NCBI GenBank assembly: GCA_000091205.1
Contig: AP006495.2
Origin: Cyanidioschyzon merolae
Lineage: Eukaryota
DNA length: 64,000 nt
Direction: 5' to 3' (one strand)
How positions within the stretch are numbered: the stretch's first letter is position 1; the number at the start of each line of letters is the position of its first letter. The translations under genes were made by a program, and so were the position numbers. Positions 11,867 through 60,369 of this stretch are shown here, piece after piece. Under the pieces are notes generated by a model. The model saw only the letters and a program-made list of their open reading frames with translations. It was not told the origin of the DNA and did no database searches.

Positions 11867-13402
11867 ATGAAAACCAAAAGTCGAGGTAAGACGAACCATT
11901 GGGACCGTGACGGTGCTCCGGCGGTGGCACGCGAGCACCAGTACCGCAGCAGCCGCAAAGGCACTGCAAAAGGGAGTGTGGCGGCGCCCGTGCACAAGCG
12001 GAGCTTGTATGCTCGAGGCCTGCTGCTCGTTGTACTCTATCTGTTTCAGGGCGTACCCATGGGCCTCACCTTTGGCTCGCTGCCGTTTCTGCTCCAGACG
12101 CGCTCTTCCTACGCCAAGCTCGGTGTATTTTCCTCTGCGTCGTATCCGTACTCACTGAAGCTTCTCTGGTCACCGATCGTCGACTCGGTATACGCGTCGC
12201 GTCTCGGTCGTCGCAAATCCTGGATTGTACCTGCGCAACTCCTTATAGGGGTCATCATGGCCTCCATGGCCGCAGCAGTGGAACGCTGGGTTCAACATGC
12301 CCGAGTGATGCAGTTGACGCTTTTCTGCTGGGGGCTCGTTTTCCTTGCGGCAACACAGGATATTGCGGTAGACGGTTGGGCATTAACGCTCTTAGGTGAA
12401 GCAGGATCCGGGTACGCATCGATTTGTCAATCGCTAGGGCTTAGTCTAGGGTACTTTTCGAGCTATACAGTTTTCCTCGCGCTGAACAGCGATGAATTTT
12501 GCGTCCGATGGCTGCAGCAAACATCCGCCGTGATTCGCTTGTATACCTTTCTGCGAATCATGGGTGCATCATTCATTGCGTTCACGCTAATGTTGGCAGT
12601 TTTTGTCAAAGAAGAAATGGCGGAGGATTTGACGCTTGTTCCGCAACCCGACACCGGAGGCCTGTGGTCCGCTCTGCGAGATGCGTATGCCGCGCTTTGG
12701 AGCATACTGCGCAAGCGCTCCATTCAGCGCTTGGTTGTATTCCTCTTGTTCAGTAAGTTTCCCTTTGCTGCTCATGATCACATATCGTCACTGCAGCTGG
12801 TGCGTCGCGGGTTCCCGCGTCAACAGCTGGCATTCATGGCGGTGCTCCAGTGGCCGTTCGACGTCATCGGAGCAATCGCTGTTGGTCGGTATGCCCGGAA
12901 CAGCCGTAACCTCAAGGACAGTCTCTGGCGATGGGGCTTTTTTCTGCGGCTGATGCTCGCAATGTTCACTCCGCTGCTCATCCACTATTTCTTCCCGCGT
13001 GGTGAAAGCGCACGATCCCGTTGGATGTTTGTCGCGATTTTCATCGTCAGTGTTCTTTACCAGTTAGCCAGCGATGGTCTAATGTTTGTGTCCACGTCTT
13101 CGTACTGTGCTCGGATTAGCGATAAGCGCTTTGGAGGCACGTACCTCACGCTTTTGAATACTGCATCGAATTTGGGGGGAACGTGGGCGACCCCGTTGGT
13201 TTTCGGTGCAGCGCACCGCTTCGGATACCTTCGTGTCGCTTTGGCTCTCCCTTTGTGTGGCCTGCTCGTATACTTGCTGCTCCTGGGACCAACTCTGGAC
13301 TATTTGGAGAAGGTTCCGGCATCAGCGTGGCAGCTTGATCGGGGTCCAGCCCAAGCCGTCGCTTCTGTGCCTCACCGCAAAACACTCCGATGTCGCGAGT
13401 GA
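11867..13402 (+). CDS. Acetyl-coenzyme A transporter 1 (AT-1 / SLC33A1 family)
   Basis: ATG at 11867. Near-collinear with SLC33A1 motifs: LYLFQGVPMGL..GSLPFLLQ, YPYSLKLLWSPIVDSVY..LGRRKSWIVP, FLAATQDIAVDGWALTLL and GGTYLTLLNTASNLGGTW. A multi-pass MFS-like membrane protein. Confidence 0.85.
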   Translation: MKTKSRGKTNHWDRDGAPAVAREHQYRSSRKGTAKGSVAAPVHKRSLYARGLLLVVLYLFQGVPMGLTFGSLPFLLQTRSSYAKLGVFSSASYPYSLKLLWSPIVDSVYASRLGRRKSWIVPAQLLIGVIMASMAAAVERWVQHARVMQLTLFCWGLVFLAATQDIAVDGWALTLLGEAGSGYASICQSLGLSLGYFSSYTVFLALNSDEFCVRWLQQTSAVIRLYTFLRIMGASFIAFTLMLAVFVKEEMAEDLTLVPQPDTGGLWSALRDAYAALWSILRKRSIQRLVVFLLFSKFPFAAHDHISSLQLVRRGFPRQQLAFMAVLQWPFDVIGAIAVGRYARNSRNLKDSLWRWGFFLRLMLAMFTPLLIHYFFPRGESARSRWMFVAIFIVSVLYQLASDGLMFVSTSSYCARISDKRFGGTYLTLLNTASNLGGTWATPLVFGAAHRFGYLRVALALPLCGLLVYLLLLGPTLDYLEKVPASAWQLDRGPAQAVASVPHRKTLRCRE

Positions 13403-15677: not shown

Positions 15678-16041
15678 CCTGCGTATGTGGCGGTCAAACG
15701 ACGACGACGACGATGACGATCTGCGTCGCCATCGAGGTGGCGTTTCTACCTAGCGCCTGTCCGCCGTCGCTTAAACACTAGGTAGCCATTGCGTTTTCTG
15801 TACTCGTTGGAGGGGGACTTTGCTTGAACGGTGTTGGTAACGAACTGGGTCCAGGGCAGCAAGGTATTTCCCAAAAAGACGCTGGCTGAAAGACACTCGA
15901 ACACGTCAGTCAAGCGAGGACTTTGGACATAGTCCTTGTGGACGCAGAAGCAAACGAGCCTGGGTCTTTTTGCGTCGCGAGGCGTTACCGAGCGCATCGA
16001 CTACAGTCTGACGCACCCCTAGGATCGGAATAGTGACTTTA

Positions 16042-19000
16042 ATGGGGGATTTGGGTGAACATGCACCGTCGAATGGCTCCGCAAAGGATAGCGTTCGGCG
16101 CTATGTTGAGGAACACGGCGGTAGTAGACCAATTCAGCGCTTATTGGTCGCAAACAACGGAATCGCCGCCGTAAAGTGCATCCGATCAATGCGAAGATGG
16201 GCATACGAAGCGTTTGGTAGTGAACGAGCGCTGGAGTTTGTAGCAATGGCCACTCCCGAGGATGTTCAAGCCAACGCCGACTACATTCGCCTCGCTGACC
16301 TCTTCGTTCCCGTACCTGGGGGAAGCAACAACCACAACTACGCCAACGTGGAGCTCATCGTCGACATCGCGGAAAGGAACGAGTGCGATGCAGTATGGGC
16401 GGGTTGGGGTCACGCCAGCGAGAACCCGCTGCTGCCCGCTCGCCTTGCGGAGACTGGTATCGCATTCCTGGGACCGGATGCCATTGCCATGAGGGCGCTC
16501 GGCGACAAGATTTCGTCAACGTTGTTAGCTCAGTCTGCGGATGTTCCAGTCGTCAGCTGGAACGGTGATGACTTGAAGGTAACTTTTCACCGCGAGCGCG
16601 GCGGTATTGATGAAGAACGCTATCGCCGTGCCTGCGTTGCGAATGTCGACGAGGCTCGCGCTGCTGCCGATCGTATTGGCTACCCAGTGATGATTAAAGC
16701 CAGCGAAGGAGGCGGTGGCAAAGGCATCCGTCTTTGCCGTCGACCAGAGGATGTTCGAGATGCCTTTCGTCAGGTCGCCGGAGAGATTCCTGGCTCTCCG
16801 ATCTTCATCATGAAAATGGTGGATCAAGCGCGACACCTGGAAGTGCAGATTGTTGCCGATGAATACGGGCACGCGATAGCGCTATATGGGCGTGACTGCT
16901 CCGTGCAGAGACGGCATCAAAAGATCATCGAGGAAGGGCCAGTTACGGCAACGCCACCGCAGGTTTGGAAAGAGCTCGAACATGGAGCGGTGCGTCTTGC
17001 CAAAATGGTCGGTTACGTAGGTGCCGGCACTGTTGAGTATCTCTACGACGGTCGACGTTTCTATTTCCTGGAACTGAATCCGCGCTTGCAGGTGGAGCAC
17101 CCAGTAACCGAGTGGATCACTGGCGTGAACCTGCCTGCAGTCCAGCTGCAGATTGCCATGGGGATTCCGCTCCAGCGTATTGCAGCTATCCAAGCACTTT
17201 ACGGCAATAGACCGGACCTGGATCTCGAGCGACACCAGCCGAACCCGCCGCATGGCCACGTAATCGCCTGCCGCGTTACCGCAGAAAATCCCGAGGAAGG
17301 ATTCCAGCCGACAAGCGGCTCCATTCAGGAGCTTTCGTTTCGAAATACGCCCAATGTGTGGGGCTATTTCAGCGTCGGCGCCTGGGGTGGTGTCCACGAG
17401 TACGCTGACTCGCAATTCGGGCACCTTTTTGCCTGGGGTGCGGATCGCGAGATGGCCCGGAGGAATATGGTGCTGGCACTGAAAGAGCTCAGCATCCGCG
17501 GAGATATCCGCACAACGGTGGAGTATCTTATTACGTTGCTGGAGCTCGAATCGTATCGCGAAAATCGCATCCATACCCGTTGGCTGGACAACCTCATTGC
17601 CTCCAAAGTGAAACCAGAGCGACCGCCGTTCCATATCGCTGTTGTGCTTGGTGCAGTCCATCAGGCGTACAGAGCCTGGTCTGAGCGCCGGCGATCTTTT
17701 GTTGAGTCGCTGAGTCGCGGTCAAGTGCCGCAGCGTATTGACGCTACCTTCATAGAATTTCAGTTCGAGCTGATCTACGATGAGCTCAAGTACGCGCTCA
17801 TCGTCAGGCAAGCGGGTCCGAATGCCTTCCACGTCTCCCTAGCACAGCATCCCGAGGAACGGGTGCGTGTTGATTTCCGACCTCTGCTGGACGGTGGTCT
17901 CTTGATCATGTGCGATGGTCGCTCCTTCAATACTCACTCCAAGGAGGATTCCACTGGCATGCGTCTGAGCATCGACGGGCGAACCTGTGTGTTCCCAGGC
18001 GAAATGGACCCTACGCGCATTGCAGCACAGGCCTCGGGGCGTCTCGTCCGATACCTGGTTGCCAACGAGGAACACGTCGATCAGGGACAAGTCATTGCGG
18101 AGATTGAAGTCATGAAAATGTATCTGAGCGTGCAGGCTCCCGAACCGGGCACCATTCACTTGCTGAAACCAGCGGGAGCGGCCCTGGAGCCAGGCGAAGT
18201 TTTTGCGCAGCTCGATCTCGACGATCCGAGCAAAGTTCGACGGGTGACGCCATTTACTGGGCGCTTTCCGACAATGCTGCCTCCACAGCGACTGGGAAAG
18301 AAACCGCACCAGCGCTTTGAGAGCGCGAAACAGCAGATCGAAGCGCTCCTGGACGGCTACGATGTTGATATGGAGCCGCTCGGCATGCTTCTGCAGCTGG
18401 CGAGCACCGAACCGGCAGTACCGGCCGGGAAACTGCAGGAGGCGCTCTCTTTCCTAGCCGGTCGTATTCCGTCGACGTTGCATGCCGCCCTTCTAGGACA
18501 AGTTTTCGAACTGCGTTCCGTTGCTCGTGATGATCACGAGCGCCTCCAACAGCATTTCCGCGAAATGAAGCGCATGATCAGCGATTTCTGCGAGCAACTT
18601 GCCATCGCAGCGGACCGCGAGGCGCTGGAGGCTACCCTGCGCCCCCTGACCAGTATCCTGGAGGCGTATGTTCGCGGGGGCCTTCGCGGCTACCACGAGC
18701 ATCTCGTTGTATGCCTCATGCAACGCTATGTGAATACGGAGAAGTATTTTGCGCAAGGTCGGCGGCTCGATGAGGTTCTATTCGATCTGCGCGAACAACA
18801 CCGCGAGCACTTGGAAGTTGTTGCGGATATCATGCTCGCACATGCCCAGTTAGCGCGAAAGAACCAACTGATGCTCGCTTTGCTCGATCACATAGCCGCG
18901 GATGCATCGCTTCTGCGCAGTGTCATTGTCCGGCAGTGCCTTCACGAGGTGGCTGCGTTCATCCACCCCGACTATAGCCAACTGGCGCTGCGAGCAAGAC

Positions 19001-22000
19001 TCTTGCTGGCGAGTTCTCGTCGCCGAGCGCTCCCCGAACGTCGAGAGCGCCTCTGCAAGCAGATCGAACAGGCTGTACATGCGCCCACTGAAGAACAATG
19101 CTATCGTCTGTTGCACGCGGTGGTCGAGTCCCAGGAAAGCATCCTGGATGCGCTGGTGAGCCTAACCATGAACCCGGGGGTGCCGGTGGAGATTCGCAAA
19201 GCCGCTGTCCAGTGCCAGATCCTGCGGGCCTACAAAGCGTACCACGTGTACGATCTGGTTGTCGAACTTGACGAGGAACTGGGTTTCCTGCGGGCGTTGT
19301 GGCGTTTCCAGTATCGTTCAAACCTGAACGCTTTTGGTAGTCATTCCAGTATGCGGTCGTTTCCGGCGGCATTGGTGGCGGCGTCGGCTCCGCTAGCCCG
19401 CCGGCAGCTGCGTAGCTACGACTCTGCGGACAATTTGCAGAACTGGGGCTTTCGAGTCGGTATGTTGGTCGTCTTTGAGACGCTGCGGGCGATGGTGCAG
19501 GGTTTCGATCGTGTGCTCCAGGTTTTTCGAGCGGAAACCGGCGGCGAAACGCTGGCTTCGCCTCGTACCAAGTCGAGCGCCGCAGTCGATTCCAGTGCAG
19601 ACTCCAGTGCTGAAGGTATTGGTGTCAATGTACTGACCATCGCCATTCCCTGGACGGCCGTGGAGGTCGCTGATTTTGCGAAATACCTGGGCGTTGCAGA
19701 CGCGGACGACCGTCTGCAGGCAAGTAATGCGAACGACTCGGAGCAGGTTGTCGCCCTGCTCACGCGTTTCTGTCGCTCTTCCGCGGAGCGCAAAGCCTCG
19801 ATGCGCGCTGCCGGTATCAAACTTGTGACCTTTTTGGTGGCACCCGGTGAACTGTGCCAGCGCACGCTGGGCTCCAGTCTGCCTCGTGAAAGCACTTATC
19901 CGGGTTTCTATACGTTGCGGGCATCGCTCGAGTACGCCGAGGATCCCATTTATCGCCACATTGATCCACCAGCGGCTTTCCAGCTGGAGCTGAATCGATT
20001 GGCGAACTTTCGTATCACCCGCTTTGAACATCCGAACCGCTCCATTCACGTCTTCTACGCGGAAGATCGAACCGACAAGGGCGACGCTCGCTTCTTCGTG
20101 CGCGCTTTTGTACGGCAAGCGGAAGTCTACGCCAGTCCCAGCGATACAGCAGCGGTTTCGATCCCGGAAGCGGAGAGGACTTTTGTGGCCTGTCTGGATG
20201 CCTTGGAAACCGCCCGTTGTGATAGGCGCTTCCGACGAACGGACTTTAATCATCTCTTCTTGCACCTGATTCCCCGGGTCTCCATCGATGTGGATGACGT
20301 CGAGGCGATCTGTACGCGCCTCTTTTATCGGTTCTCCTCACGTTGCTGGCGTTTGCGCGTGTTCATGGTAGAGATCAAAGTCCATGTGGAAAAAATGGGC
20401 CCGAAACCGCTTCGATTTATTCTCTATAATCCAACCGGACACTCGTTACGCGTTGAAGGCTACGTGGAACAGGGAGATCGTCTCCTGTCGTTGGATTCCA
20501 GCGATCCGGGTCATTTACATGGTACACCCGTCGATGAGCCGTACCAGGTACTGAACCGTATCCAGCGCCGGCGAGTTGTTGCCCAGACGCTCGAAACAAC
20601 TTACGTCTACGATTACCAGGAGCTTTTCACCAAAGCACTCCATGAGCAGTGGCGGCGTTATTCGCAGGAACGACTTTTGGGAGGATTTCGCCGCCACAAG
20701 ATACCGCTGAAACTGCTGACCTGCACGGAGCTCGTTCTCCAGGATGAAGATCATGACGAGAGCGAGCTGATAGAGACCAACCGCCCCGCCGGGGAGAATG
20801 AAATCGGTATGGTCGCCTGGCGCTACACCTTCTTCACGCCCGAGTATCCCCAGGGTCGCGATGCGATCGTCATTGCCAACGATATCACGTACCTGAGTGG
20901 ATCGTTTGGACCTCGAGAGGATCGCCTCTTTGCCAAGGCGTCTCAGCAGGCGAGAAAGCTCGGTATACCGCGCATCTACATCGCTGCGAATAGCGGAGCC
21001 CGAATCGGCCTCGCGGAAGAACTGCGCAACGTCTTCCAAGTTCAGTGGAAGGATGCACATGACCCGAGCCGAGGCTTCGACTACCTCTACCTGGGACTGG
21101 CGGATAAGCTCAAGTACGAGGATGAACTCGGCATCGTGCGAACGCGAGACGTCGGCGGCGGCAAGTACGCTCTAGTTGATATCTATGGCGCTGAGGATGG
21201 CATTGGTGTCGAGAACCTCATGGGTTCAGCGTGCATCGCTGCCGAGACCTCAGCCGCCTACAATGACTGCTTCACCATCACGTACGTCGCAGCGCGCTGT
21301 GTGGGGATCGGTGCGTACCTCGTGCGCCTGGGGCAGCGCGTTATCCAGCGCGAGCACAATGCACCGATCATCCTCACTGGCTACTCAGCGCTGAATAAGC
21401 TTCTGGGTCGCGAAGTCTACACCAGCCACGAACAGCTGGGCGGTACGAAGATCATGTATCCGAACGGGGTTACCCATCTGCGCGTATCCAATGACTACGA
21501 GGGTGTTCGGGCAATTCTGGACTGGCTCGCTTTTGTGCCTCGTATGCAAGGGGAACGACCTCCGATGATCGACTCCATCGATGCTGTGGTACGCGAAGTC
21601 GACTACGATCCACGAGTGGCTAACGAGGATATTCGATACGCCATTGAAGGCAAGTGGGTCGGACCCTTCGCTCCCGACGGGGCAAGTGTGGTCTCGTCGT
21701 CGGGCTCGTCGGTGTCGTCCAATGGTCCGGTTGCGACAGGTGCGAGCGCTGGACTGCCGCCCGTCAACATGGAGAGTGTCGGCGGTGAAGTTCGGTATCG
21801 TTCGCGGTCGCGGACGGCTTCGTATGCGGGTGCGAATGCAGCAACAGCAGCAGCACCAGGAGCAAGTAGCTTGGCGACCTCTGGAGCGGCACTTGCGAAT
21901 GCTACGGGACGAGCAGCGGCTCGGGTGAGCCTCGTATCGACCAAGCCTGCAACCGGTGTCGAGGAGGTTCCCGCGGCGTTGCCTTCGGGTTCGAGTTCAC

Positions 22001-23447
22001 TGGCGCTCCGCTCGACCGCTGTCGCTGCGCCTGTACCTCAGGAGAGAGCAAAGACGGATGCGGATGCGGATGCGGATGCGGATGCGGATGCCTTGGAGGC
22101 CACTGGAACTGCCCGAGGCGCAGATACCAGCGGTGCTGGGGCGCACGCAAGCCCTGACACCCGGCAGCCGCCCACACTGGATGCCCTGAAGACTGCGAGG
22201 TTTGCACCAGCGCCCGCTGCATTGCCGACGACAGGTTTACGCTCGCCACCACAGTCCCCGGGTTCTGTTTCTGCGTATAGCCCGTTGGAGAGTGGCTCTC
22301 CATTGGAGCCGTCCCTTGACGAGGATCACATCGCTTTCACGGACACCGATCGGATGCGGATCGGGTCGCCTTTGGTACACGCGACCGACGCCTGGGATAC
22401 GAGCAACAGCGTTCACTCGAGTAGCGCGACGACGATGGCTGCAGGTGCCGTCCGGGGCTCGCGACTGTTCACTGCGTCATCGAGTACGTCGGCGGCTGCG
22501 GGAGCAAGCGCCAGCAATAGCAGCAACAACGGTAGCAGCAATGCGAATACGAATACCATGAACAATGCTGGGAGTAGCGTGGCATCGGCAGGCGCACCGC
22601 TCAACACCACCGGTAGCATCAATACCAATACCAATGCCAATGCCAATACCAACAATATCTTGGGTAGCGGTGGTGTTGGTGCGACAGCTTCGCTGACCGC
22701 TTGGAGCGGTAACCTTCCGCCGCTACCGTACGTTCCAAATACGCTCATGGTGGTGGACAACCAAGGGTACGTGTTCCTGGCAGGCCTCTTCGACCGTCAC
22801 TCGTTTCGAGAGACGCTCGCTGGCTGGGCGAAGTCCGTTGTGGTTGGTAGAGCACGCCTTGGTGGTATCCCCGTGGGCGTTATTGCGACACAGACGGTGA
22901 CCACAGAGAAGGTTATTCCCCCGGATCCAGCGGCGCCAGACTCGCGTGAGCTTCGTGAACAGCAGGCCGGTCAAGTCTGGTATCCAGATTCATCCTTCAA
23001 GACTGCCCAAAGTATTCGTGATTTTGATCGCGAGGGTTTGCCTCTGTTTGTTCTGGCCAGCTGGCGCGGTTTCTCTGGCGGAGCACACGACATGTTCCAG
23101 GAAATACTCAAGTTTGGTTCAGAGATCGTTGACGCGCTTCGCGAGTACTCGAAACCCGTCTTTGTGTACATACCACCGGGAGGCGAGCTTCGAGGCGGTG
23201 CCTGGGTCGTCCTCGATACCGCCATCAATCCCCGCTTTATCGAAATGTACGCCGATGAAAGTGCACGTGGTGGTGTGCTCGAACCTGCCGGTACCGTGGA
23301 TATCAAGTTCCGCACCAGAGATTTGCTGAAGACCATGCAGCGCCTGCTACCATCGTCTAGACGTGATGAGAGCGATTCGAGTGCGTCCGACGTTGTCGGC
23401 ATGCTGTCTTTGGACGCATCATCATCATCAGCAGCAGCAACAGCAGC

Positions 23448-23481
<34 letters not shown>

Positions 23482-24201
23482 GCAGGTACCGCTGGGACGT
23501 CCTCTTCGACTGCTGGGCGTAGCGAGTCGCGGGTCACAAAGTCAACGGCGGACGGCTTGCCAGCCTTCGAGGCAGACGGTCGGAGTTCGCTCGAGCAAAC
23601 ACTCTTGCCCATCTTTCAGCAGATAGCCATGACGTTTGCGGATCTGCACGATACAGCGGGTCGGATGCAACATAAGCGCGCGATTCGCCGAGTGGTACCC
23701 TGGCGAACAAGTCGCACGTTTTTCTACTGGCGCCTTCGACGTCGGCTCGCCGAGGAGGAACTGCGGAGTCGCGTTTCACAAGCGGATCCGCAACTCAGCG
23801 ACGCGGAGATCGATGCGCTGCTGCGGAAATGGGCAAGAGCACATGACCCCGCTCTGGACGGTGATATTTACGAACTTGATGATCCTCGTGTCGTGCAATG
23901 GCTCGAGGACGAATTGGATAGCCAGTTGGAGCGGCGTTTGCACAAACTCCGCGAAGCACGCGCCACCTGGCAAGCTGTGGAACTGGGGAATACAGCACCC
24001 GAGGCGTTGCTTGCGGCAATTGAGCGTATTCTCGTACAAATGGATGAAGTTGGTCGCAACGAATGGTTACGAACGCTTAGTGCGCGACTCGAGAACACCT
24101 CATCCGGTTTGGGTGATCTCGAGGCGCCCAGCTCGGGTGAGCAGGCCGCACCACGACGTGTCTTGTCGGGTCGTGGTCTGCTGCGACGCTTCCTCGGGTA
24201 G
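16042..24201 (+). CDS. ACC: Acetyl-CoA carboxylase, eukaryotic multidomain type (biotin carboxylase, BCCP, central domain and carboxyltransferase)
   Basis: The track start at 16033 is GTG, and the first ATG at 16042 sits just after an in-frame TGA at 16009. The biotin carboxylase domain has [51 protein letters not shown] and ELNPRLQVEHPVTE. The biotinylation motif EIEVMKM lies at about 18106-18120. The carboxyltransferase domain has [38 protein letters not shown]. The 2720-residue length reflects low-complexity insertions. Confidence 0.95.
21680..22720 (+). repeat. Low-complexity insertion of about 350 aa inside the ACC carboxyltransferase domain, including (GCGGAT)6 encoding DADADADADADA and an NTNTNANANTNN tract
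   Basis: The insertion lies between the conserved IEGKWVGP block and the PPLPYVPNTLMVVDNQGYVF block. It is S/A/T/N-rich, and the hexamer repeat is visible at 22055-22090. Confidence 0.8.
23424..23486 (+). repeat. (CAA/CAG/ATC)n trinucleotide tract inside ACC, encoding SSSSAAATAATTTTTTTTTTTAG
   Basis: Direct read of atcatcatcagcagcagcaacagcagcaacaacaacaacaacaacaacaacaacaacagcag. Confidence 0.9.
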
Positions 24202-24777: not shown

Positions 24778-26421
24778 CTAGGGTTTATCAGGGCAAAGCG
24801 CATTGCAGCAAGCTGCTTGATCGGAAGCTCGCGAGCCCTGGTATCGATCGTAGTATCGAATACCACGTCCGTCAATGCGAACGAGGTAGTAGGTTCCGGG
24901 GAAGAGTTCCTCCAACGGTTCGGAGGGCTCGTAATCACAGGCGCCGTAGTTCTGTTCGCGAAGACGAAGCGTCTCATGAAAACAAGCAGGCGACGTCGGT
25001 ATCCGTGCTCCTAGTCGTTCTATGAGACCAACTCGTCGAAGAAGCGCCTCCGGAGAGGCCACGACCCGCATGGCGTACATTGACGCTGCCATGCCGCTGC
25101 CAAAACCGAAAAGAACCACCCGTTTGCCGAGTGTACGATCCCTCTCGGCATCGAGTAAGCACAGTAAATTACCAAAAAGCGAGGCGGTGTACGCGTTGCC
25201 GGTTTGTCGAGCCAGCGTCGTCGACGGAGCACACTTGGCGCGATACAGTGGCTCCGAGCATTCAAGCACGAGCTGCATCAGGGTTCGATCCCAGTAGGTT
25301 GACGGTGGCGGTACGCACACACCAGTCGGGTTCAGGTGCGCAGGGAGGCGTTTCAGCTTGGCAAGTTGCGCACGTAACGCACCCGATACGGCACGATGCT
25401 GTGAAGCCAGTTCAGGATAGCGCAAGTAGTCGTTGAGCACGAGTCGCGCAAACGATTTGCGCACCAGTTTGTTGAATGGTGCATGGAAAACCACATAATC
25501 GAGTTGCGTTGCGTCGGCATCCGCGACCGGTGTCACCGAAGGCTCAGCAAAAGCGGTGCTTGTCAGCAGGGTGCATCGAAGCGACTGTTGTTCGGTGACC
25601 TGCTCGGCACCGGGTCGACCGCTGGTTTCCGCCAGCCATACTCGTGTGCGTCGAGTCTGCTGCTCGACTCGTCCAGTAAACCTGGTGTAACAGATATCGA
25701 GTGCTCTAAAATAGCAAGCAATGCTTTCCGTGCCATTCACAATAGGATACTCTGTATCCTGTCGACGAGCAGGCTTGAAAAAGTCCCATGTGTTTTCAAA
25801 ATGGCTACTTTTAAGGCCCGGTTCCAGCACCAGGATGGGCTCTAGCTGCGGGTAGCGTTGGGGCTGCGCTCGACCAATGAGGAGCGCGACTGCGCCCGCT
25901 CCACCGGTTGCTCTCGCTGGTCCGCGCGGATACACGGCAATATCGCCGCACACCACGAGCCCGAAGCGACCATCAAAGAGGGTACAGCTCTCGCACCAAG
26001 CGATGGTGTTGAAGAGGGCATTGGTACCAGCGTAGCAGGCGTTGGTAGAATCGATGCCTTCGACCTCAAAGTTGCCGCTCTGTTCAAAGAGGGACATGAG
26101 CGCCGTCTTGATCGACTTGGCTCGATCGATGATGGTCTCGGTGCCGACCTCGAGCCTGCCGATGTCGTTGTATTCAATTCGGTATTTCTCCATGAGCGTC
26201 TGCACGACTGTCATGCACATCGAGCGCACATCCTCGCGATCGCCACAGAACGACATGGCTTGTTGTCCCAAACCGATGGTGTATTTCCCAGGGGTGACGC
26301 CGTCGAAGCTCTCCAGCGCCCGTTGATCGACATATTTGCGTGGGAAGTATACTTCAATGGCCAGAATACCTACCGGATCAAAGGTGGAGACTGAAGGAGC
26401 CAAAAGCTGCGCTTGTCGCAT
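24778..26421 (-). CDS. HMGCS: Hydroxymethylglutaryl-CoA synthase (cytosolic mevalonate-pathway type)
   Basis: Long collinear match to HMG-CoA synthase: VGILAIEVYFPRKYVDQRALESFDGV, GKYTIGLGQQAMSFCGDREDVRSMCMTVVQTLMEKY, GRLEVGTETIIDRAKSIKT, EGIDSTNACYAGTNALFN and GGAGAVALLIG. An ATG (minus strand) at 26421 sits just before the conserved N-terminus. The ORF is open further upstream to 26595, so a 58-aa N-terminal extension is possible. Confidence 0.9.
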   Translation of the reverse strand: MRQAQLLAPSVSTFDPVGILAIEVYFPRKYVDQRALESFDGVTPGKYTIGLGQQAMSFCGDREDVRSMCMTVVQTLMEKYRIEYNDIGRLEVGTETIIDRAKSIKTALMSLFEQSGNFEVEGIDSTNACYAGTNALFNTIAWCESCTLFDGRFGLVVCGDIAVYPRGPARATGGAGAVALLIGRAQPQRYPQLEPILVLEPGLKSSHFENTWDFFKPARRQDTEYPIVNGTESIACYFRALDICYTRFTGRVEQQTRRTRVWLAETSGRPGAEQVTEQQSLRCTLLTSTAFAEPSVTPVADADATQLDYVVFHAPFNKLVRKSFARLVLNDYLRYPELASQHRAVSGALRAQLAKLKRLPAHLNPTGVCVPPPSTYWDRTLMQLVLECSEPLYRAKCAPSTTLARQTGNAYTASLFGNLLCLLDAERDRTLGKRVVLFGFGSGMAASMYAMRVVASPEALLRRVGLIERLGARIPTSPACFHETLRLREQNYGACDYEPSEPLEELFPGTYYLVRIDGRGIRYYDRYQGSRASDQAACCNALCPDKP

Positions 26422-27862
26422 CGTATCCGGGTGAAGTGGCTCCGACTCCTGTGCAGCACTCGTTGTTGGCGGCATTCCGCAAAACCAAGGCCTGTTTTGT
26501 TCCCTGCGTGACAAGCATGAAGACGTCCGCTGCGTTTGCTGGTCAGACGAGCACCAGCTGTCTTTGTCTGATAACCAACTTGTCTGGAGCTCCATAGGCT
26601 GTAGTGCTCCACCGAGCTCTTTTTAACCGTGCCGGTCGCTTGTATTCTAGAAGCCGCGACACTTCAGGTCGGTCGATGTACAGCAACCCAACGCAAGCGG
26701 TGGCGCTTTTCGTGCAGAAGCGCGGACCTCGCCGTACGTATCGCTCAGGCTCCGAAACGCACCAGCGAGTTTCTCGTTCGCAGTGAGAGTTCAGCCACTC
26801 AGTTCGATGGACCAGGCTTGTCTAATCGACGCAATGTTCCACCATACATAGAAACATGGTGCAACCAAAGTCTTTCCCGAACGGCATGAGCCAACCGCTT
26901 TGCTCATACGTATCCAGCTGGGAGAAGCAGCAGCAGCGGCAGCGGCGATGGCGGCGGCAGCGGCGATCTCCACGCTTGGAGCCACCAGGGCTCGTGTCCG
27001 TTTTTTCTTTCTACGAGATAGCGCCCATGAAACACGGAGTGCAGGCAGTGCTCCTGCTTCCTGCTAGACGAACGGATACGATCGCGTGTCAACGAGATGC
27101 TCGAGTCGAGTCTGTCCGATTCTGGTGCTGGGAACATGACGGGTCTTTTCGTATACGCGTACGGCCTCATATCCGTTTATGTGAAACGGGATCTCGGATC
27201 CCAACCCAGTCGCTCCATCAACGTTCTTGTGAACAGTACCGAAGCTTGACATGCTGCGGCCTGTTTGGTAGCATTTCTCAGACAACTTTTGCAGCGGCAT
27301 CAATTGATCAAAAGACCTTCGAGTTGATAGAGTCAAACAGATTCCGTTTCGGGTGCACGGTGTTCAGCGTAAGGGCCAGGAGACGGGTGACTCATGCACC
27401 CGCTTATCGTAGAATGAGTACCATGGGGAAAACGGTAGATTTTTCGCCTGCTACCGGTGACGGAATCCAGACTTTCGGCGGTCTGGCTCCCGACTAGTGG
27501 ATGCATTCCTTCTATTGAATACTTCCGGGAAAACAGAACCCAATCGGCGTGATGGTATAGGTATTCCAGAATTTACTGCTCTGCGTCTACCAGCATGACA
27601 GTGCTAAGTTTAGATGCATCATTCGTGTACCATTTAGACTGTTCAAGGGATCGACTTCATCGCAGACAACATTTCGAAAAAAGACGGTATTGGCGTGTCA
27701 CAGCCGCGAACGGCCGGTCGTGCGCCTTGAACAACCCGAATGCGGGACGTAGCCAGTATGCACCGCAAGCTCCAAAGTACGGACCAACACCAAAAACCTA
27801 ATCGATTCAACTGCAGAGATGCCTGCTTGTGAATTCCAGCCAGTCGCGTACCGCCACGTGCT

Positions 27863-53245: not shown

Positions 53246-53531
53246 GTTCGTGAAGGAGGCGTTACGGCTGCGCGGATACGAAACGAGGGGTTCTACCTCT
53301 TGACCGAAAGAGGCTCTCAAACTCAGTTTCGGCCCTAAACAGCTCAGAAACAGGAAGCACTCACGAGGGCAACACGCTTTGACACAAAACCGGTGCCTAC
53401 GAGTCGCACGCTCTCACGCAGTCAAAGCTTGTGAGCGCTCACGCGCTGCCCCCGATAGCCTCGCCCCGCGTTTGTCAGTAGACGCCAGGTCGAGTCGGGT
53501 ACACACACGAGGTTGTCGTTGTCGTCGACGA

Positions 53532-53556
53532 CGGCGGCGGCGGCGGCGGCGGCGGC
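53532..53556. repeat. (CGG)8 microsatellite
   Basis: Direct read of acggcggcggcggcggcggcggcggcc in intergenic DNA downstream of the EBP1 gene. Confidence 0.9.
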
Positions 53557-55247
53557 CATCGCTCGCCGCGCTCTCCTGGACACCATCCAGCAGAGCGCTT
53601 CGCCGAGCGGCCTCGCGGTACGTACGGGAATCGACCTGTTGTCCAGCGTCATTGAGGGCGTCGCGTTTTTGTCTACCGTTTTGCTGGCGCGTCTGTACGC
53701 GGGTGTCGATGCTGAACCTATCCCTAATTTTGACGAGGGCAGCGTACACCGCAGCGGCTTTTGATAGGAGAGGTGGTGATAGCGAAATCGGGACGCATGG
53801 GTAACACGCTCTCTCATGTGTGACGCATGCTCATTCCGGAGCGAGACTGGTGGATGAAAGGCAGTTCCAATGCATAGACGTGTCGCACATTCTCTCTTGC
53901 CTGTCGTGTGTGAGCGTTGTGGACCGGAGAGCGCGCGGCGACGGGTGCCTCACATGAACATACATACACTGGAGCGCATCGACGCATACATGCAGGTACA
54001 CAAGCAAGCATCCTAGATGGAGTTGGCATTTGTTGACAGTATCCGGCTCCGAACTAACGAATGCTAGACTGGTTGTATGGTCGCGCGGGGTGCACCAATC
54101 CGAAAGCACCATTGTGAGGTTGTGTGGCGCTGCAAGAGCCTTCGCGTAATGCGCGCAGCAGACCGGCACTCGCAACATGGTGAACATCTGCCCCGTGCCT
54201 AGAGGTGCATCTTGCAGCGGCTCTTCGCGAAAAAAGAATGCGTGTATTCGGTTGTCTAGGTACAAGGGATCCATACGGTCTTGAACCCTTTGCTTTAGGA
54301 TCTCTTGCTACGCATACGCTCGATCACTTGAAGCAATCGACATCGGGGTGTTTCACATGGAGCTCATGAAATGGATCGAGGTTACGCAGTATGCCATCAA
54401 AGAGACTCAATCGGTTCGGTCAGCTGAAATTTTTCAGCCGCTCGCGAGCATTGACGAGTCTGATGCAGAACATAGATACGAGGCGCACGCTTCGCCATGG
54501 AAAGAAAACAACTCTGCTCGCAGACTGTTTGATCTCTGTACATTAGAAGTAAACTGGAGCTTCCCTGTGCACCTGGGGAGATCGGCTCCGTGCGTCGTCT
54601 GCACAGTAATCGACAAATATCCAGAGCATTGGATAACATGTTATCGACTCTCGAACGACACAATCTAGAGACTCGCTTTCGTATAGATATGTAGATACGC
54701 ACTATGGCAGTGAAACGATCAAGTCCCGCGATAACAGCGTAAATGAATACCCGCCTGCAGACGCCTCCCAGCCTTTTTTGACCAGCGGCTTCTTATCGGT
54801 TCGCGTTTCTCCTTGGACATTTCGATCCTGGGAGTTTGCCCAAGAAAATAGATCGCGTCAGCTCTTCGGATCTCATCTGCAACATCATACATCATCTCAT
54901 ATAGCTGGCGATGTTGAAGTCTGTATTCACGAGATCCGCGCGTTTATTGCCTCTGGTTGAACGCACCATTGCAAGGATTCCTCTAATTCTTGCGCTCTGT
55001 GCTACGCCAGTATCATCATTGTCCCACTGAGCAAACGCCTTCTCTCGCGTATCGCCCTTCATATCGCTCGCCTCCTTCCTCTTCGTCACTCGCTCTTCTT
55101 CGCTCGCTGGTCGGCGAGAACTGGATTTTGCATTGTTTGTTTCTGTCAGGGAGCGACGTCTGCCTCCAAGATCCCTGTCTTTCATCTTCATACCTCCCCC
55201 TTGGATTTTCTATTTCTTCACAAGAACGCACTCGGAACACATTTGCT

Positions 55248-56828
55248 ATGCACTGCGATAAAGCATTTGGTTACACGCATCTGCCTATGGAACACAATTC
55301 AGGTGAAACACTTGAACACACCCAGGTGCACTGCCGGCACGCAACTACGCTGAAAGCGCACGTGGAGCTGCAGTCGACTTTCACTGGACCGAAGCTCCCT
55401 GGCGAGCCAACAAGCATGCAGGGAACTTGTTCAGTAGCTACAGAACGTTACGGCTTCGTCGCACCGAACCAGTTGCTTCAGCAGAACAAGCGCTGGCGAA
55501 CGCAGGCTCTTCGGCGAGCAGGCGTCTGGGACGTTCCCGAGGCCGTTGTTTCACTGAGAACGTTTCGGGTTGCTCGGAACGCGGGCAGTGGGCGCGTGCC
55601 CCGGGCCGGCTTCATACGTCGAGTGCTGGCACTCTCTGTGCGACACGCTCGGGAAGGGCAAACGCTTGACCCCAGCGCTGCGCCACGGTCCTCTCTAGAG
55701 TCGGGGACCTGGTTCAAGCTTATTTGCGGAGCTTCGTTCAACGAGGTGACAGAGATTGCTCCGCTCACGAGAGACTATGCGCTAGCAGGTGCTGATTGCG
55801 TAGACTGCGCGGCCGAGCCAGCCGTTGTTCAAGCAGTCCTGGACGGACTAGACGAGGCGGAGCGTCGGTGGCGGTGGACCCTCACCAGTGACTCGTCTTG
55901 CGCCCGTCCGGATCGATTGACGAAGAGCTTCGCACGTCCATGGATCATGGTGTCAATTACCGACGATGAGATGGAACCGCACTTTCGAAAAGCGCGTGTG
56001 CACGTCGACGCGCACGCACCTTGCTGGCAATGCCCTGCTCCGTGTGCTCAACTTTGTCCAGCGGACGCCCTCACGTTGCCAGCGACGGCGAAAAACGTGA
56101 ACCAATTCCAAATATTCGGCATTTCGAGCACCCGATGTTATGGTTGTGGGCGCTGCATCCCCGCCTGTCCGTATCATTTGATTGAGACGCACTCGAGCAA
56201 GCAGACCCCACAGCAAGTGATGGCACTCGTGCGCAATTATCCCATCGATGCAGTCGAGGTTCACACGCGTGATCCGCTTAGCGAGTCGTTTGCTGCCCTC
56301 TGGTACAGCGAAATCGGGCGCACCCTGCGAGCGACGATGAAACTCATCGCGATTAGCATGCCGGAGCCCAATGACTGGAGTGTTTTCGAGTACATTGCGC
56401 GGCTCGTGTACGGGGCGCACGTCGACGAGTCGGGAACTGTGCAGGAGGCACCAGCGACGCCACCGAGTACGCCCATTCTTCTGTGGCAGTGTGATGGTAA
56501 GCCTATGACCGGTGATCTGGGTGCACCTGCCACCACTCGGGCGACCGTGCGCTATGCCACCAGCTTAGCGGAATACTTTCGAAGGAATCCGCACTTGCTT
56601 GCCGCACGGGGATTCATTCAGTGTGCTGGCGGTACCAATGCCCATACGATTCCGCTCCTTGAGGGCGTGGACGGGGTCCACGGGGTAGCTTACGGTGGCT
56701 ACGCGCGTCGACTCGTTGCAACCGGCGGCTATGAGGCTGCGCAACGGTTGGTACAGCAGGTGAAAACGCGCTTGGTATCTCCGAAAGCTGCCAATCGAGA
56801 AGCTGTGCAACCCGAAACGAGTCTGTAA
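55248..56828 (+). CDS. Fe-S protein with an LdpA-like N-domain and a 4Fe-4S ferredoxin motif; long N-terminal extension
   Basis: KLICGASFNEV...YALAGADCVDCAAEPAVVQAVLDGL recalls the KLICGAS signature of cyanobacterial LdpA as I remember it. A canonical CxxCxxCxxxCP (CYGCGRCIPACP) is present. The track start at 54990 is TTG, and the first ATG is at 55248. The ~150 aa before the conserved block are S/T/R-rich and transit-peptide-like. Confidence 0.45.
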   Translation: MHCDKAFGYTHLPMEHNSGETLEHTQVHCRHATTLKAHVELQSTFTGPKLPGEPTSMQGTCSVATERYGFVAPNQLLQQNKRWRTQALRRAGVWDVPEAVVSLRTFRVARNAGSGRVPRAGFIRRVLALSVRHAREGQTLDPSAAPRSSLESGTWFKLICGASFNEVTEIAPLTRDYALAGADCVDCAAEPAVVQAVLDGLDEAERRWRWTLTSDSSCARPDRLTKSFARPWIMVSITDDEMEPHFRKARVHVDAHAPCWQCPAPCAQLCPADALTLPATAKNVNQFQIFGISSTRCYGCGRCIPACPYHLIETHSSKQTPQQVMALVRNYPIDAVEVHTRDPLSESFAALWYSEIGRTLRATMKLIAISMPEPNDWSVFEYIARLVYGAHVDESGTVQEAPATPPSTPILLWQCDGKPMTGDLGAPATTRATVRYATSLAEYFRRNPHLLAARGFIQCAGGTNAHTIPLLEGVDGVHGVAYGGYARRLVATGGYEAAQRLVQQVKTRLVSPKAANREAVQPETSL

Positions 56829-59800
56829 AGGAATCTGCTTACTGAATGCAGGCGAGAACAGGAGCCGCCTTTCTCTCTGCATCCAGCATAGACGATGTTT
56901 GGGGTACATTTCGGGTAGCGGATCGTGCTTGGAACCAAATTGAATCGAAGAGTTCACCAGGAGCGGTGTGCGTTTTTTGCGGTGCAGTATCGAACTCCAC
57001 AACCTGGTATACACTTGTCAAGCGCGATGCGAAGCCGGTCTTGGCGAAGCGTATTGTTCGAGCCTCCCGAGACTTGCTCGCATTCATGGGAATATGTGGC
57101 GGCGCTTGTCGCTCGATACTATCGACGTGTAGCGAAGGACTCGTGTCGGGAATGCTCGCTCGTCGTGTACGATCAGACGACGGTACGCTTTGCGGCAGCC
57201 GACACGCTCTGAAGCTCGATCGCCTCCCGGGTTTGTCGGAGGACCTCGCATGGATGCTCTAGTGCCTGGTTTCTGCTCTTCTCCTCAAAGCAGTGAATTC
57301 TGGAACAGCAGTGCCAATGCACCCGTTTTAGTTTGTTTGTTTTCTCCCAGGTATTCAACAACAGGCATGCCTCCTGCAGAACAGAAATAGGTTCCGGGAA
57401 AAAGTTGTCCTGTCACCGCTCGGTGGAGAGAAAAATGACCGTACTTGTGCTAGTCAGGGATTCACTGGTCACCCGCTTGATGAACCAGCCTTCTCCCTGT
57501 ATGTATCCAGTGCGCATCGCACACCCAAAATAGAGCTTATCCAAGTGTATACCCAGCTGTATCTTCGTCAATTTGATCCCTTCCTTCCGTTCTCGAACAA
57601 GTGCTTTCAATGAAGCTAGGGGATGCGGAGCTTCTGTACCGTTTATGTGGACGGCAATGAAGACACCGGGTGGACGATGAAGAAAGCGCGCTTCCATGGC
57701 AGAGTGTCAAGCATCGAACAACACACACCGTGGATTCGGCACGGCAACGCGAATGCTTTATGCAGTAATGACGGATGTCGGTTTCAGTCGATGAGACTAC
57801 ATTTTGGAGAAATGTTAGACCGGCACATCGGCACCAAAAGAAACGCACACCGGTGTTCATAAACATGTCGCGAGCGAGCATGGAGGCCCTGTCTGCCCTA
57901 ACGGCAATATGATCGTATGCTTGCCACCAAGTCACGAAAACGGATACGATCGTTCAGCATCGCGTGTTTTGTCGAGACACTGTGCACGGCTTCTCTATCC
58001 TACATTCTTGTGCACTGTTACTTGGCGACGTCGCTTTCCACCTCTCAAAAGCAGTCGAGGAGTACACAGCTGAGACTCTTGTTGAGCTCCTCTTCGTGCA
58101 TGCCTATTCTTCCTGATTCAATCCCTTGAAGGCGTCTTCTCCGTTGTCAAACGCCATTTTTTCGTCGCCAGATCAAAAGAAGCGCCGTTCGCGTCCGCAA
58201 GGCCATGTTTCTACATGTCGTTCTCAGCGGTCGCCAGGCCTGAATGGCTCTGTCGCGTCTCTGGGCGTTCGTGGGAAGGTGCGAAAAGGTGCATTTCGAT
58301 TCGTGGGCATGCTCGCGACGAATATGGCGGGAAGGTGCTTGAAGAATGGTAAATACATGCACAGAAAGGGTGAGCTTCAATGCCATTCTCCACCCAGTGC
58401 GTTTGAATCCAAACGAATACAAACGCCTATGGAGTCAAGCGACCACATCCATATCATACCGCCAAAAAGGTAGAAGCAGGTTGGTCAAACGGACAAAGAG
58501 AAGAAAGAATCTTCCGAAAAGAGGACGAAGAGCGATGCGAAGAGACACGTTTCGGACGGGAGAGATCAGGCAGAACCTGTTGACAAGACCTTCCTATTAA
58601 ACTACATCAACGGGAAGCATCTACGAATATGTGGAATGCAGGATGCTGCCAAAGATAGCGAAGCTTCTCACTCGAGAAAGACTCGTCTAGCGTCTCTCGC
58701 TTTGATGTACCTTGTCAAGCACCTGCACGTATGCGTTCCGAACGCGGGGCTGTAAGCTGTAAAAATTTCTCTGGAAATTTTATGAACAATTCTTCATGCG
58801 AAAACACAAGTGGGTTTCAGGCCTCAAGAAGCAGTTCGGTCTGAATATTCCATGACCCGGTATTATACGGGGCCGTGTACCACGGACGCCAGCATAAAAA
58901 ACCAACAAGTGGCACGAGGGCGTCTGGACCAGTGCTCGAAGCCACGAGCACCGTACTGAGCAGAGGGCTTGCGTCGTATGCTTCATCCAGCGAGCACACG
59001 AGCGTCCAAATGACTCATGCGAACTATCTTTGCCTGGAGTGCGTGAGACTGCGTTGGAGTCGCAAATCGTTTCGGTTGTACGCAGCCGAGAGGCGTGCAA
59101 TAACCAACTTCTAGAGTGCAATAAAAACGGCAGTGACCGGACACTCGTCTTGATTGGCGGTGCTGCATCCCGGCGCTCGACGTACCGTCATGTGCAGAGG
59201 GTGCAGCTCTACTCCCGCGACGAAAGCTTGCAACGAGTGCAGGAATCGATTCTGTACGGTTCCCATCGATGCATTCGGGACGACGTATACGCATCACAGG
59301 CACAGCTGCTCGCTGGAAAAGTAGGAGAATACGAGCGTGAAATAGAGTCGGATGCACTGGATGGTGTTCGGGATGCAGCCCGAACGTCAGATGGCGAGGC
59401 AGTCATAGCTGAAAAGCATTCCATGGTGTGATTGCACCAGCAGCAGAGCGCATAGGCGCGCCCTGTACCGCGATCTCAGAGCCTTGATCAACATTCGGAA
59501 ATGTCTCATGCTGTCTGAGCGTCGAGCGGCTTGGTGTCGAGCGAACTTTCGAGCGGATGACTGAGTCCTCGGCGTTGACCTTCAGTTGAAACGCTGAAGA
59601 CATTTGACGAAAAAACAGAGAGCTATCTGTTACGACTAACTTCTCGCCTGGGCCAAGACACTGGTAGAGAGCGGTTCAGGAATTCAACAAGACTGAAGCG
59701 CCGGTTATAAACACCAAGAATGATTTTCCCGGTCAAATCTTCACTGATAATCGTATTCCATGGTTCAATATTTCTGAGCATATGCTGCTGTCGTGGCGAC

Positions 59801-60369
59801 GCGGATGCGGAATTCAGAACGATTGCTCGAAATATGACCAGCTGCAGCGGCGATGCAAGTTTATGACCGAGCCAGCCCTGCAACCGCTCTGCTCAGTACC
59901 CTGCTATTGTACAAGCCGTGGTGCAATGGCGCCGAGTTATAAGTGCAACGAGAACGAAACGACTTGGCTCTTGCGCGTTGCGCCCTCAGGCCGAGTAACG
60001 GAGTCCTTTTTTGTGCCAGAAATAATGACGCCTACGAATTTCGCGAAAACAGACCGACTGCTGTAGTTTCAGAGGACGGTCACCAGGGGTTTCGATACGC
60101 CAGAAACCGCTCGGTTGGAAGCGCGCTCCAAACGGAATTGGATGTAAAGGATCAGTGTCTGGGGCCAGCAAACCTCTCACACTGCGTACGCTGCAGGCTT
60201 CTCCAAGTCGCTACACTTTCTGCGGTTATCGGTTGGATCAGTCCGAAAGTAACCCCGAATATCTCTGTTCTCTGAAATCATTATCGCCACTGCCAGTCCT
60301 TCTTCCTAGATACAAATCCTAGGCGAAGCGTGCGCACTCCTATTCATACATTCGACACGGAAAGCGAGG

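Follow-up and report, generated by a model that had tools for sequence, protein, structure and literature searches.

A nuclear LdpA-family gene in the red alga Cyanidioschyzon merolae

Coding sequence and LdpA domains

Analysis of a 64,000-nucleotide stretch of Cyanidioschyzon merolae DNA (contig AP006495.2, assembly GCA_000091205.1; here called the window) revealed a gene for a protein resembling LdpA, an iron-sulfur (Fe-S) protein of cyanobacteria. In the mechanical list of open reading frames (ORFs) of the window, the gene is part of a 612-codon open frame on the plus strand (54990-56828), to which all codon numbers refer. The translation of positions 55248 to 56828 is identical in 526/526 residues to BAM81051.1 / XP_005537087.1 of C. 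merolae strain 10D, a member of a 90% protein cluster that is labelled "hypothetical protein, conserved." This deposited coding sequence (55248..56828, plus strand, 526 amino acids) is intronless, and one ORF spans the LdpA profile uninterrupted. Neither the gene nor its domain assignment is new: the gene is in GenBank and in UniProt, where the LdpA Pfam domains are given. The original prediction, made from the nucleotide sequence, had left it between a photosynthetic and a secondarily non-photosynthetic organism; the 100% identity to the protein of the red alga C. merolae 10D decides for the former.

Searching Pfam revealed both LdpA domains, in the correct order and above their gathering thresholds. 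PF25160 (LdpA_Fe-S-bd; 56 bits, 3.5e-15, threshold 27.6 bits) covers residues 347 to 403 (56028..56198, plus strand) and corresponds to an inserted ferredoxin-type domain for two [4Fe-4S] clusters, which is matched by Fer4_7 as well. PF12617 (LdpA_C; 97.4 bits, 9.8e-28, threshold 22.2 bits) covers residues 414 to 591 (56229..56762, plus strand), the C-terminal domain with the predicted strands beta4 to beta8. The NCBIfam profile NF045992, "circadian clock protein LdpA," matched with 263.7 bits (E = 2.4e-78) over the 348 residues 231 to 578, which align to profile positions 4 to 320 of 360 and leave the last ~40 positions unmatched. Together with the predicted model, this profile delimits an N-terminal LdpA region of codons 231 to 346 (55680..56027, plus strand), which comprises strands beta1 to beta3.

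The motifs quoted in the original prediction were all recovered in the ORF by motif search, on the plus strand. KLICGASF is encoded at 55716-55739 and the AGADC block, LAGADCVDCAAEPAVV, at 55782-55829; the N-terminal signature KLICGAS ... AGADC(I/V)D is thus present upstream of the Fe-S domain. Cluster motif 1, CWQCPAPCAQLCP, lies at 56022-56060, with its first two codons just 5' of the Pfam boundary, and cluster motif 2, CYGCGRCIPACP (CxxCxxCxxxCP), lies at 56136-56171. Three invariant motifs are found in the C-terminal domain, namely EVHT (56256-56267), WQxDGxPMxGD (56484-56516) and AGGTN (56625-56639), likewise on the plus strand.

Conservation was counted in an alignment of 120 homologues, 104 of them cyanobacterial. 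All eight cluster cysteines are retained in the C. merolae protein, arranged as two ferredoxin-type motifs that could bind two [4Fe-4S] clusters. Seven of these cysteines occupy invariant columns; the first is kept in at least 90% of the sequences, its position being shifted in the Cyanidiales. All homologues (120/120) have motif 2, and motif 1 reads Cx3Cx3Cx3CP in 117/120, the variant Cx2Cx3Cx3CP being confined to the three Cyanidiales. The invariant columns of the N-terminal block are K, I, C, G, A, S, C, and D (the last two listed as C128 and D130), and in ORF numbering K243, C246, C270, and D272 are invariant, together with HFR, E-x-H-T, W-Q-x-D-G, M-x-G-D, and A-G-G-T-N. The cysteines C246 (55725-55727, in KLICGAS) and C270 (55797-55799, in AGADC), found in 120/120 homologues, lie outside the clusters on the neighboring predicted strands 1 and 2; they could constitute a redox-active pair or an additional site for a metal. 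Codon 361 (56070), just past cluster motif 1, encodes Leu in strain 10D (ADALTL) and Phe in all recovered environmental C. merolae-like variants (ADAFTL).

Comparison with cyanobacterial LdpA (S. elongatus PCC 7942 and orthologues) revealed the same arrangement of the N-domain with KLICGAS...AGADC(I/V)D, the inserted two-cluster ferredoxin domain, and LdpA_C, as well as the same eight cluster cysteines, two extra invariant cysteines, HFRKA, E-x-H-T, WQ-DG-PM-GD, and AGGTN. The C. merolae protein differs in motif 1 (Cx2Cx3Cx3CP instead of the cyanobacterial Cx3Cx3Cx3CP) and in bearing an N-terminal extension of 88 to 144 amino acids, and its gene is nuclear and lacks the adjoining downstream Ycf45-like gene. 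Its identity to the non-cyanidialean homologues in the alignment is 36 to 44%. With the N-, Fe-S, and C-domains all aligned to the LdpA profile, the assignment in the original prediction is correct and specific, and the protein is, judged from these alignments, a clear but diverged LdpA-family member.

The reading of the gene product as a generic 2x[4Fe-4S] ferredoxin-domain or radical-SAM-type protein with a superficial likeness to LdpA was rejected and has a negligible probability: many Fer4 Pfam families and the NuoI, HydN, and RnfB models do match residues ~340 to 405, but these matches reach at most ~34 bits and cover just the ~60-residue insert, whereas the LdpA profile matches with 264 bits over 348 residues and the N- and C-domain motifs specific to LdpA do not vary among the 120 homologues. 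All other NCBIfam models (NuoI, HydN, RnfB, etc.) remained below 30 bits and were limited to residues ~340 to 410, and a sequence search of the Protein Data Bank (PDB) found partners only for the two-cluster module of ~60 residues, exclusively domains of the NuoI/TYKY/PsaC type. The outcome that the original prediction had named as its refutation, generic ferredoxin or radical-SAM matches only, did not occur.

Start codon and N-terminal extension

The start of the gene at 54990, as originally proposed, was not upheld. Position 54990 is the opening of the frame after a stop, and its codon, TTG, can serve as a start only in the bacterial code that the ORF tool applied. Codons 1 to 86 contain no ATG; the first three in-frame ATGs are codon 87 (55248, the deposited start), codon 100 (55287), and codon 143 (55416). 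Codon usage was scored as log-odds trained on the Pfam-supported genes of the window versus its ORF-poor stretches (reference means, +0.16 for coding and -0.27 for intergenic DNA). Scores were -0.20 for codons 1 to 43 and -0.24 for codons 44 to 86, borderline for codons 87 to 142 (+0.04 and +0.015), and +0.02 to +0.25 from codon 143 onward, except for codons 301 to 400 (-0.02). Codons 1 to 86 look intergenic because their scores are near the intergenic mean, and their frame scores no better in codon usage than the other frames. The GC content is 0.47 to 0.52 in this upstream stretch (54990..55247, plus strand) versus 0.59 to 0.60 within the gene, and the step from 0.52 to 0.60 occurs only at about 55400. 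The Ser-rich codons 1 to 86 (17 Ser) are almost certainly untranslated and most likely represent 5' leader or intergenic DNA.

The LdpA profile alignment starts at codon 231, so the extension is at most 144 amino acids long, or 88 amino acids if translation starts at 55416. Codons 87 to 142 (55248..55415, plus strand) are, by charge, codon usage, and GC content, either the first part of a presequence or 5' untranslated region; with a net charge of -2, 7 His, and 6 acidic residues, this His- and Glu-rich segment is unlike a transit peptide. Codons 143 to 230 (55416..55679, plus strand) have 14 Arg, few acidic residues, a net charge of +10, and predicted helices that look amphipathic; composition and AlphaFold confidence make this segment a candidate organelle-targeting peptide. 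Of the S/T/R-rich presequence of 150 to 230 amino acids originally proposed, the Arg-rich part is real, while the Ser-rich part lies 5' of any ATG and the length is too great. In the AlphaFold model, the extension is mostly of low confidence, with a predicted local distance difference test (pLDDT) score below 50 at residues 1 to 21, 43 to 59, and 77 to 82 and with means of 30 to 66 for 10-residue blocks.

Environmental C. merolae-like contigs are ~99.2 to 99.5% identical to the window sequence and contain only ~10 variable sites in the ORF, too few to choose between the starts. A 470-amino-acid cluster member beginning MQGTC was considered as support for the start at 55416 and was discarded as a truncation artefact, since its contig starts 53 nucleotides upstream of the gene.

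Extensions are a property of the eukaryotic proteins as a group. In the 120-sequence alignment, 49 to 200 residues precede the conserved Trp of WFKLICGAS in the eukaryote clan, except in the Klebsormidium model (22), compared with 12 to 32 (median, 15) in the 104 cyanobacterial sequences. The Cyanidiococcus and Cyanidium orthologues have extensions of 96 to 110 amino acids, and those of streptophytes have 49 to 200. The extensions of the three cyanidialean genera could not be aligned (local score of 35.5 versus 39.5 +/- 8 for shuffles), a result no better than shuffles, and an apparently common "CRHAT" was dropped as a chance match. Within a Cyanidiococcus strain pair, the 112-codon extension has 0 indels versus four indel events in the 400 nucleotides upstream, and the substitution rate and codon-position pattern of the extension look unconstrained; as evidence, this is weak. 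Phe-containing N-termini have been reported for red-algal transit peptides. GFVAP (55452-55466, plus strand) lies 13 residues past the 55416 ATG, and the orthologue from Cyanidium begins MGFVQT; both presumably resemble such N-termini and are taken as a lead only. A clade-wide, Arg-rich, poorly conserved extension with a low-confidence model has the properties expected of an organelle-targeting peptide, which suggests that the protein may be imported.

Ancestry and chromosomal setting

Homologues were searched for in a large protein collection and, for prokaryotes, in one genome per prokaryotic species. The first match, a 526-amino-acid protein at 99% identity, was followed by two Cyanidiales and then by cyanobacteria and streptophytes at 35 to 42%. 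By BLASTP, the orthologues from Cyanidiococcus yangmingshanensis (KAF6003053.1) and Cyanidium caldarium (KAK4536117.1) are 61% and 51% identical, respectively. The prokaryote scan found 573 relatives; among the best 80, the named records are nearly all cyanobacteria, accompanied by several metagenome-assembled genomes (MAGs) labelled "uncultured bacterium," one record labelled Sericytochromatia, and one labelled Bacteroidota. A published survey of 11,264 prokaryote genomes found LdpA only in cyanobacteria (PMC5520375). The contigs of the two exceptional relatives (L043 and L087), from MAGs labelled Candidatus Sericytochromatia and Bacteroidota, are probably mis-binned cyanobacterial DNA; if genuine, the Sericytochromatia relative would be interesting with respect to how the LdpA family arose.

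Homologues in the green lineage were found in Klebsormidium, Closterium, Physcomitrium, ferns, Picea, Aristolochia, and Juncus, and among angiosperms from Amborella to legumes and monocots. None of the streptophyte homologues found carries a functional name: nearly all are labelled "uncharacterized," and one Medicago entry reads "putative iron-sulfur binding protein LdpA." Those annotated as "4Fe-4S ferredoxin-type domain-containing" (Physcomitrium patens XP_024394853.1, Medicago truncatula, Klebsormidium KFL_003690090) share the Pfam domains of the C. merolae protein and fall into the same eukaryotic clan. The streptophyte proteins keep the Cx3C spacing and are nearer to cyanobacterial LdpA than the cyanidialean proteins are, as revealed by the NF045992 scores: 478 to 624 bits for cyanobacterial LdpA, 380 to 408 bits for streptophytes, and 264 to 305 bits for Cyanidiales (284 to 305 bits for those other than C. 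merolae). A literature search for a eukaryotic LdpA homologue found no paper, and none was found for LdpA in combination with Cyanidioschyzon or PF12617.

A neighbor-joining tree (350 columns, 200 bootstraps) recovered the Cyanidiales as monophyletic (100%) and the streptophytes together (91%). Red and green sequences, together with a metagenome sequence (P0062), formed one clan with 96% support, which remained at 88 to 91% when slowly evolving columns were used. Each analyzed in the absence of the other, reds and greens attached to adjacent cyanobacterial lineages. P0062 (L007), at the base of the eukaryote clan, has a 62-amino-acid N-terminal extension and is encoded on a gene-sparse contig. 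P0081 (L008), from an "uncultured bacterium" MAG, was the nearest prokaryotic neighbor of the Cyanidiales in 61/100 replicates. The cyanobacterial or plastid ancestry put forward in the original prediction is supported by both the prokaryotic relatives and this clan, and a single endosymbiotic gene transfer from the plastid ancestor would fit the grouping of red and green sequences well, though not conclusively.

The window is plainly eukaryotic nuclear DNA. Neighboring genes encode a multidomain acetyl-CoA carboxylase of 2,722 codons, HMG-CoA synthase, TIP41, phosphofructokinase, an acetyl-CoA transporter, and a GH31 glycosidase. The order M24 peptidase (minus strand), LdpA (plus strand), GH31 (minus strand) is kept in three cyanidialean genera, as seen in C. 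merolae-like metagenome contigs, Cyanidiococcus, and Cyanidium. This synteny indicates that the LdpA gene is a stable resident of cyanidialean chromosomes and not a contaminant. The Cyanidiococcus and Cyanidium orthologues share the Cx2C variant and the M24 peptidase and GH31 flanks with C. merolae but differ in the intergenic distances and in extensions that do not align with each other. The LdpA and GH31 genes converge on an interval of ~3.5 kb (56829-60369) with no ORF longer than 150 amino acids, no tRNA, and no Rfam match; its counterpart measures ~100 bp in Cyanidium and, in a Cyanidiococcus-like contig, ~0.7 kb. Scans of the whole window for tRNAs and Rfam families gave no match. Between the divergent M24 peptidase and LdpA genes, the intergenic DNA contains a perfect (CGG)8 microsatellite at 53532-53556, near which a related strain has a 6-bp deletion (53512-53517). 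The multidomain eukaryotic acetyl-CoA carboxylase (16033-24201), HMG-CoA synthase (24778-26595), and acetyl-CoA transporter homologue (11867-13402) genes lie within ~15 kb of one another, a local cluster of acetyl-CoA-related genes that may be a coincidence.

Predicted fold, proposed mechanism and competing readings

The predicted model of the protein is a TIM barrel ((beta/alpha)8) with the two-[4Fe-4S] ferredoxin domain inserted after strand 3. The invariant residues are located in or beside the predicted strands, with AGGTN following strand 7. TIM barrels usually bind their ligands at such strand positions, and the position after strand 7 is a common site of phosphate binding. Phosphate-binding TIM barrels (PdxJ, IGPS, and TrpA) have 7 to 16% sequence identity to the protein, and the solved structures of bacterial-type 2x[4Fe-4S] modules (NuoI/TYKY, PsaC, and polyferredoxins) lack the combination of barrel and clusters in the LdpA arrangement.

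In Synechococcus, LdpA is described as a [4Fe-4S] protein that responds to the plastoquinone pool's redox state and changes CikA levels through an unknown mechanism (PMC13421787, PMC6378743). The S. elongatus protein co-purifies with KaiA and CikA and modulates the circadian period (PMC6378743, PMC13421787), and deletion of ldpA in Synechococcus shortens the period by ~1 h (PMC12000584).

The explanation that we favor, and hold to be quite probable as a whole, including import and mechanism, is that the gene is a single-exon nuclear red-algal orthologue of cyanobacterial LdpA. The gene would have come from the plastid ancestor by endosymbiotic gene transfer, and the last 88 amino acids of the extension, rich in Arg, would direct import, most likely into the plastid. 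After import, the protein would consist of the (beta/alpha)8 barrel and the ferredoxin module after strand 3. Its clusters may accept electrons from, or donate them to, the photosynthetic electron transport chain or its acceptor side, and may relay electrons or redox state to a conserved pocket on the C-terminal face of the barrel, lined by the invariant K, C, C, D, E-x-H-T, Q-x-D, and AGGTN. The clocks of plants and algae are not known to rest on Kai proteins, and the output of LdpA in C. merolae therefore probably differs from the KaiA/CikA route of Synechococcus.

A rival reading is that the LdpA family, the C. merolae protein among them, consists primarily of oxidoreductase-type enzymes, not of dedicated clock sensors, and that the circadian phenotype in Synechococcus is secondary; we regard it as possible but rather doubtful. 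The barrel would then bind a phosphate-bearing substrate or cofactor, be fed by the two [4Fe-4S] clusters, and work with a Ycf45-like AAA/R3H ATPase. The latter is suggested by the genomic neighborhood of ldpA in cyanobacteria. Among 79 cyanobacterial ldpA loci (L008-L087), a gene of ~600 codons is located directly 3' of ldpA on the same strand in 71, with a median gap of 70 nucleotides, and in 4/8 exceptions the contig is too short to hold a downstream gene. The product has SpoIIIAA-like/AAA, "PTPase" (PF25516), and R3H domains (e.g., L045:6136-7941), and from its domains and length it looks like Ycf45. Synechocystis slr0692, with 1,770 nucleotides, is annotated as ycf45 (PMC13139465), and in red-algal plastid genomes the name ycf45 is given to orf565 (PMC5217408, PMC3716797). 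In 20 loci, ndhN lies 5' of ldpA in the same orientation. A literature search found no paper linking LdpA with R3H.

Several further observations are in line with an enzyme: the invariant polar residues in and beside the barrel strands, with AGGTN after beta7; the retention of the family in angiosperms, mosses, conifers, charophytes, and Cyanidiales; and the modest effect of the ldpA knockout, only ~1 h on the period (PMC12000584). In cyanobacteria, ldpA is described as "conserved" whereas cikA and kaiA are only semi-conserved (PMC5464585), and LdpA is present in Prochlorococcus, which is without KaiA and CikA (PMC5520375). Against an enzyme stand the lack of any known substrate, cofactor, or activity, the identification of the neighbor as Ycf45 from domains and length only, and the fact that the adjacency of ldpA and the Ycf45-like gene does not exist in the red-algal nucleus.

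Other points weigh against our preferred explanation of a plastid-derived, imported LdpA orthologue. The score of ~264 bits is below the cut-off of 450 bits at which NF045992 assigns equivalogs, i.e., proteins of the same function, so that the same function as in cyanobacterial LdpA is not implied. Read by sequence score, this NCBI criterion does not certify functional equivalence with the Synechococcus clock protein for any eukaryotic homologue. The redox-sensing role in the circadian input pathway, which the original prediction had attached to the protein, was not carried over because the score lies below this cut-off. None of the solved structures searched has the whole LdpA architecture, and the proposed barrel-pocket mechanism is drawn only from the predicted model and conservation. 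Neighbor joining is a distance method and both eukaryote groups are long branches; part of the support for their clan could reflect long-branch attraction. The candidate starts at 55248 and 55416 give different extensions, and either may be the true start.

The last of these points concerns the destination of the protein. An Arg-rich, acid-poor segment with amphipathic-looking predicted helices, as in codons 143 to 230, has traits common to mitochondrial presequences, and mitochondrial or dual import would account for them. We consider such import improbable compared with import into the plastid: LdpA is otherwise found only in cyanobacteria and plastid-bearing eukaryotes in our searches and in the published survey (PMC5520375), and the role described for LdpA is tied to photosynthetic electron flow (PMC13421787). 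The Phe-containing GFVAP motif and the N-terminus MGFVQT of the Cyanidium orthologue, with their presumed likeness to red-algal transit peptides, are a further lead in favor of the plastid.

On the preferred explanation, the C. merolae gene is an ordinary endosymbiont-derived nuclear gene with the cyanobacterial ancestor of the plastid as its source. In the literature, LdpA is known only as a cyanobacterial circadian-input factor, yet it is conserved in red algae and land plants. The near-universal pairing of ldpA with the Ycf45-like gene in cyanobacteria and the retention of LdpA in lineages whose clocks are not known to depend on Kai proteins underlie a more tentative proposal, to which we give well under even chances: LdpA may fundamentally be not a clock protein but an enzyme-like module of ancient origin in oxygenic phototrophs, a TIM barrel with two [4Fe-4S] clusters, that red algae and plants retained as plastids evolved. 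If this is true, C. merolae would be a genetically tractable, Kai-free system for the primary function of the family. The distribution of LdpA and the Ycf45-like linkage hint at a core job in plastid or photosynthetic redox biology and not in the Kai clock.

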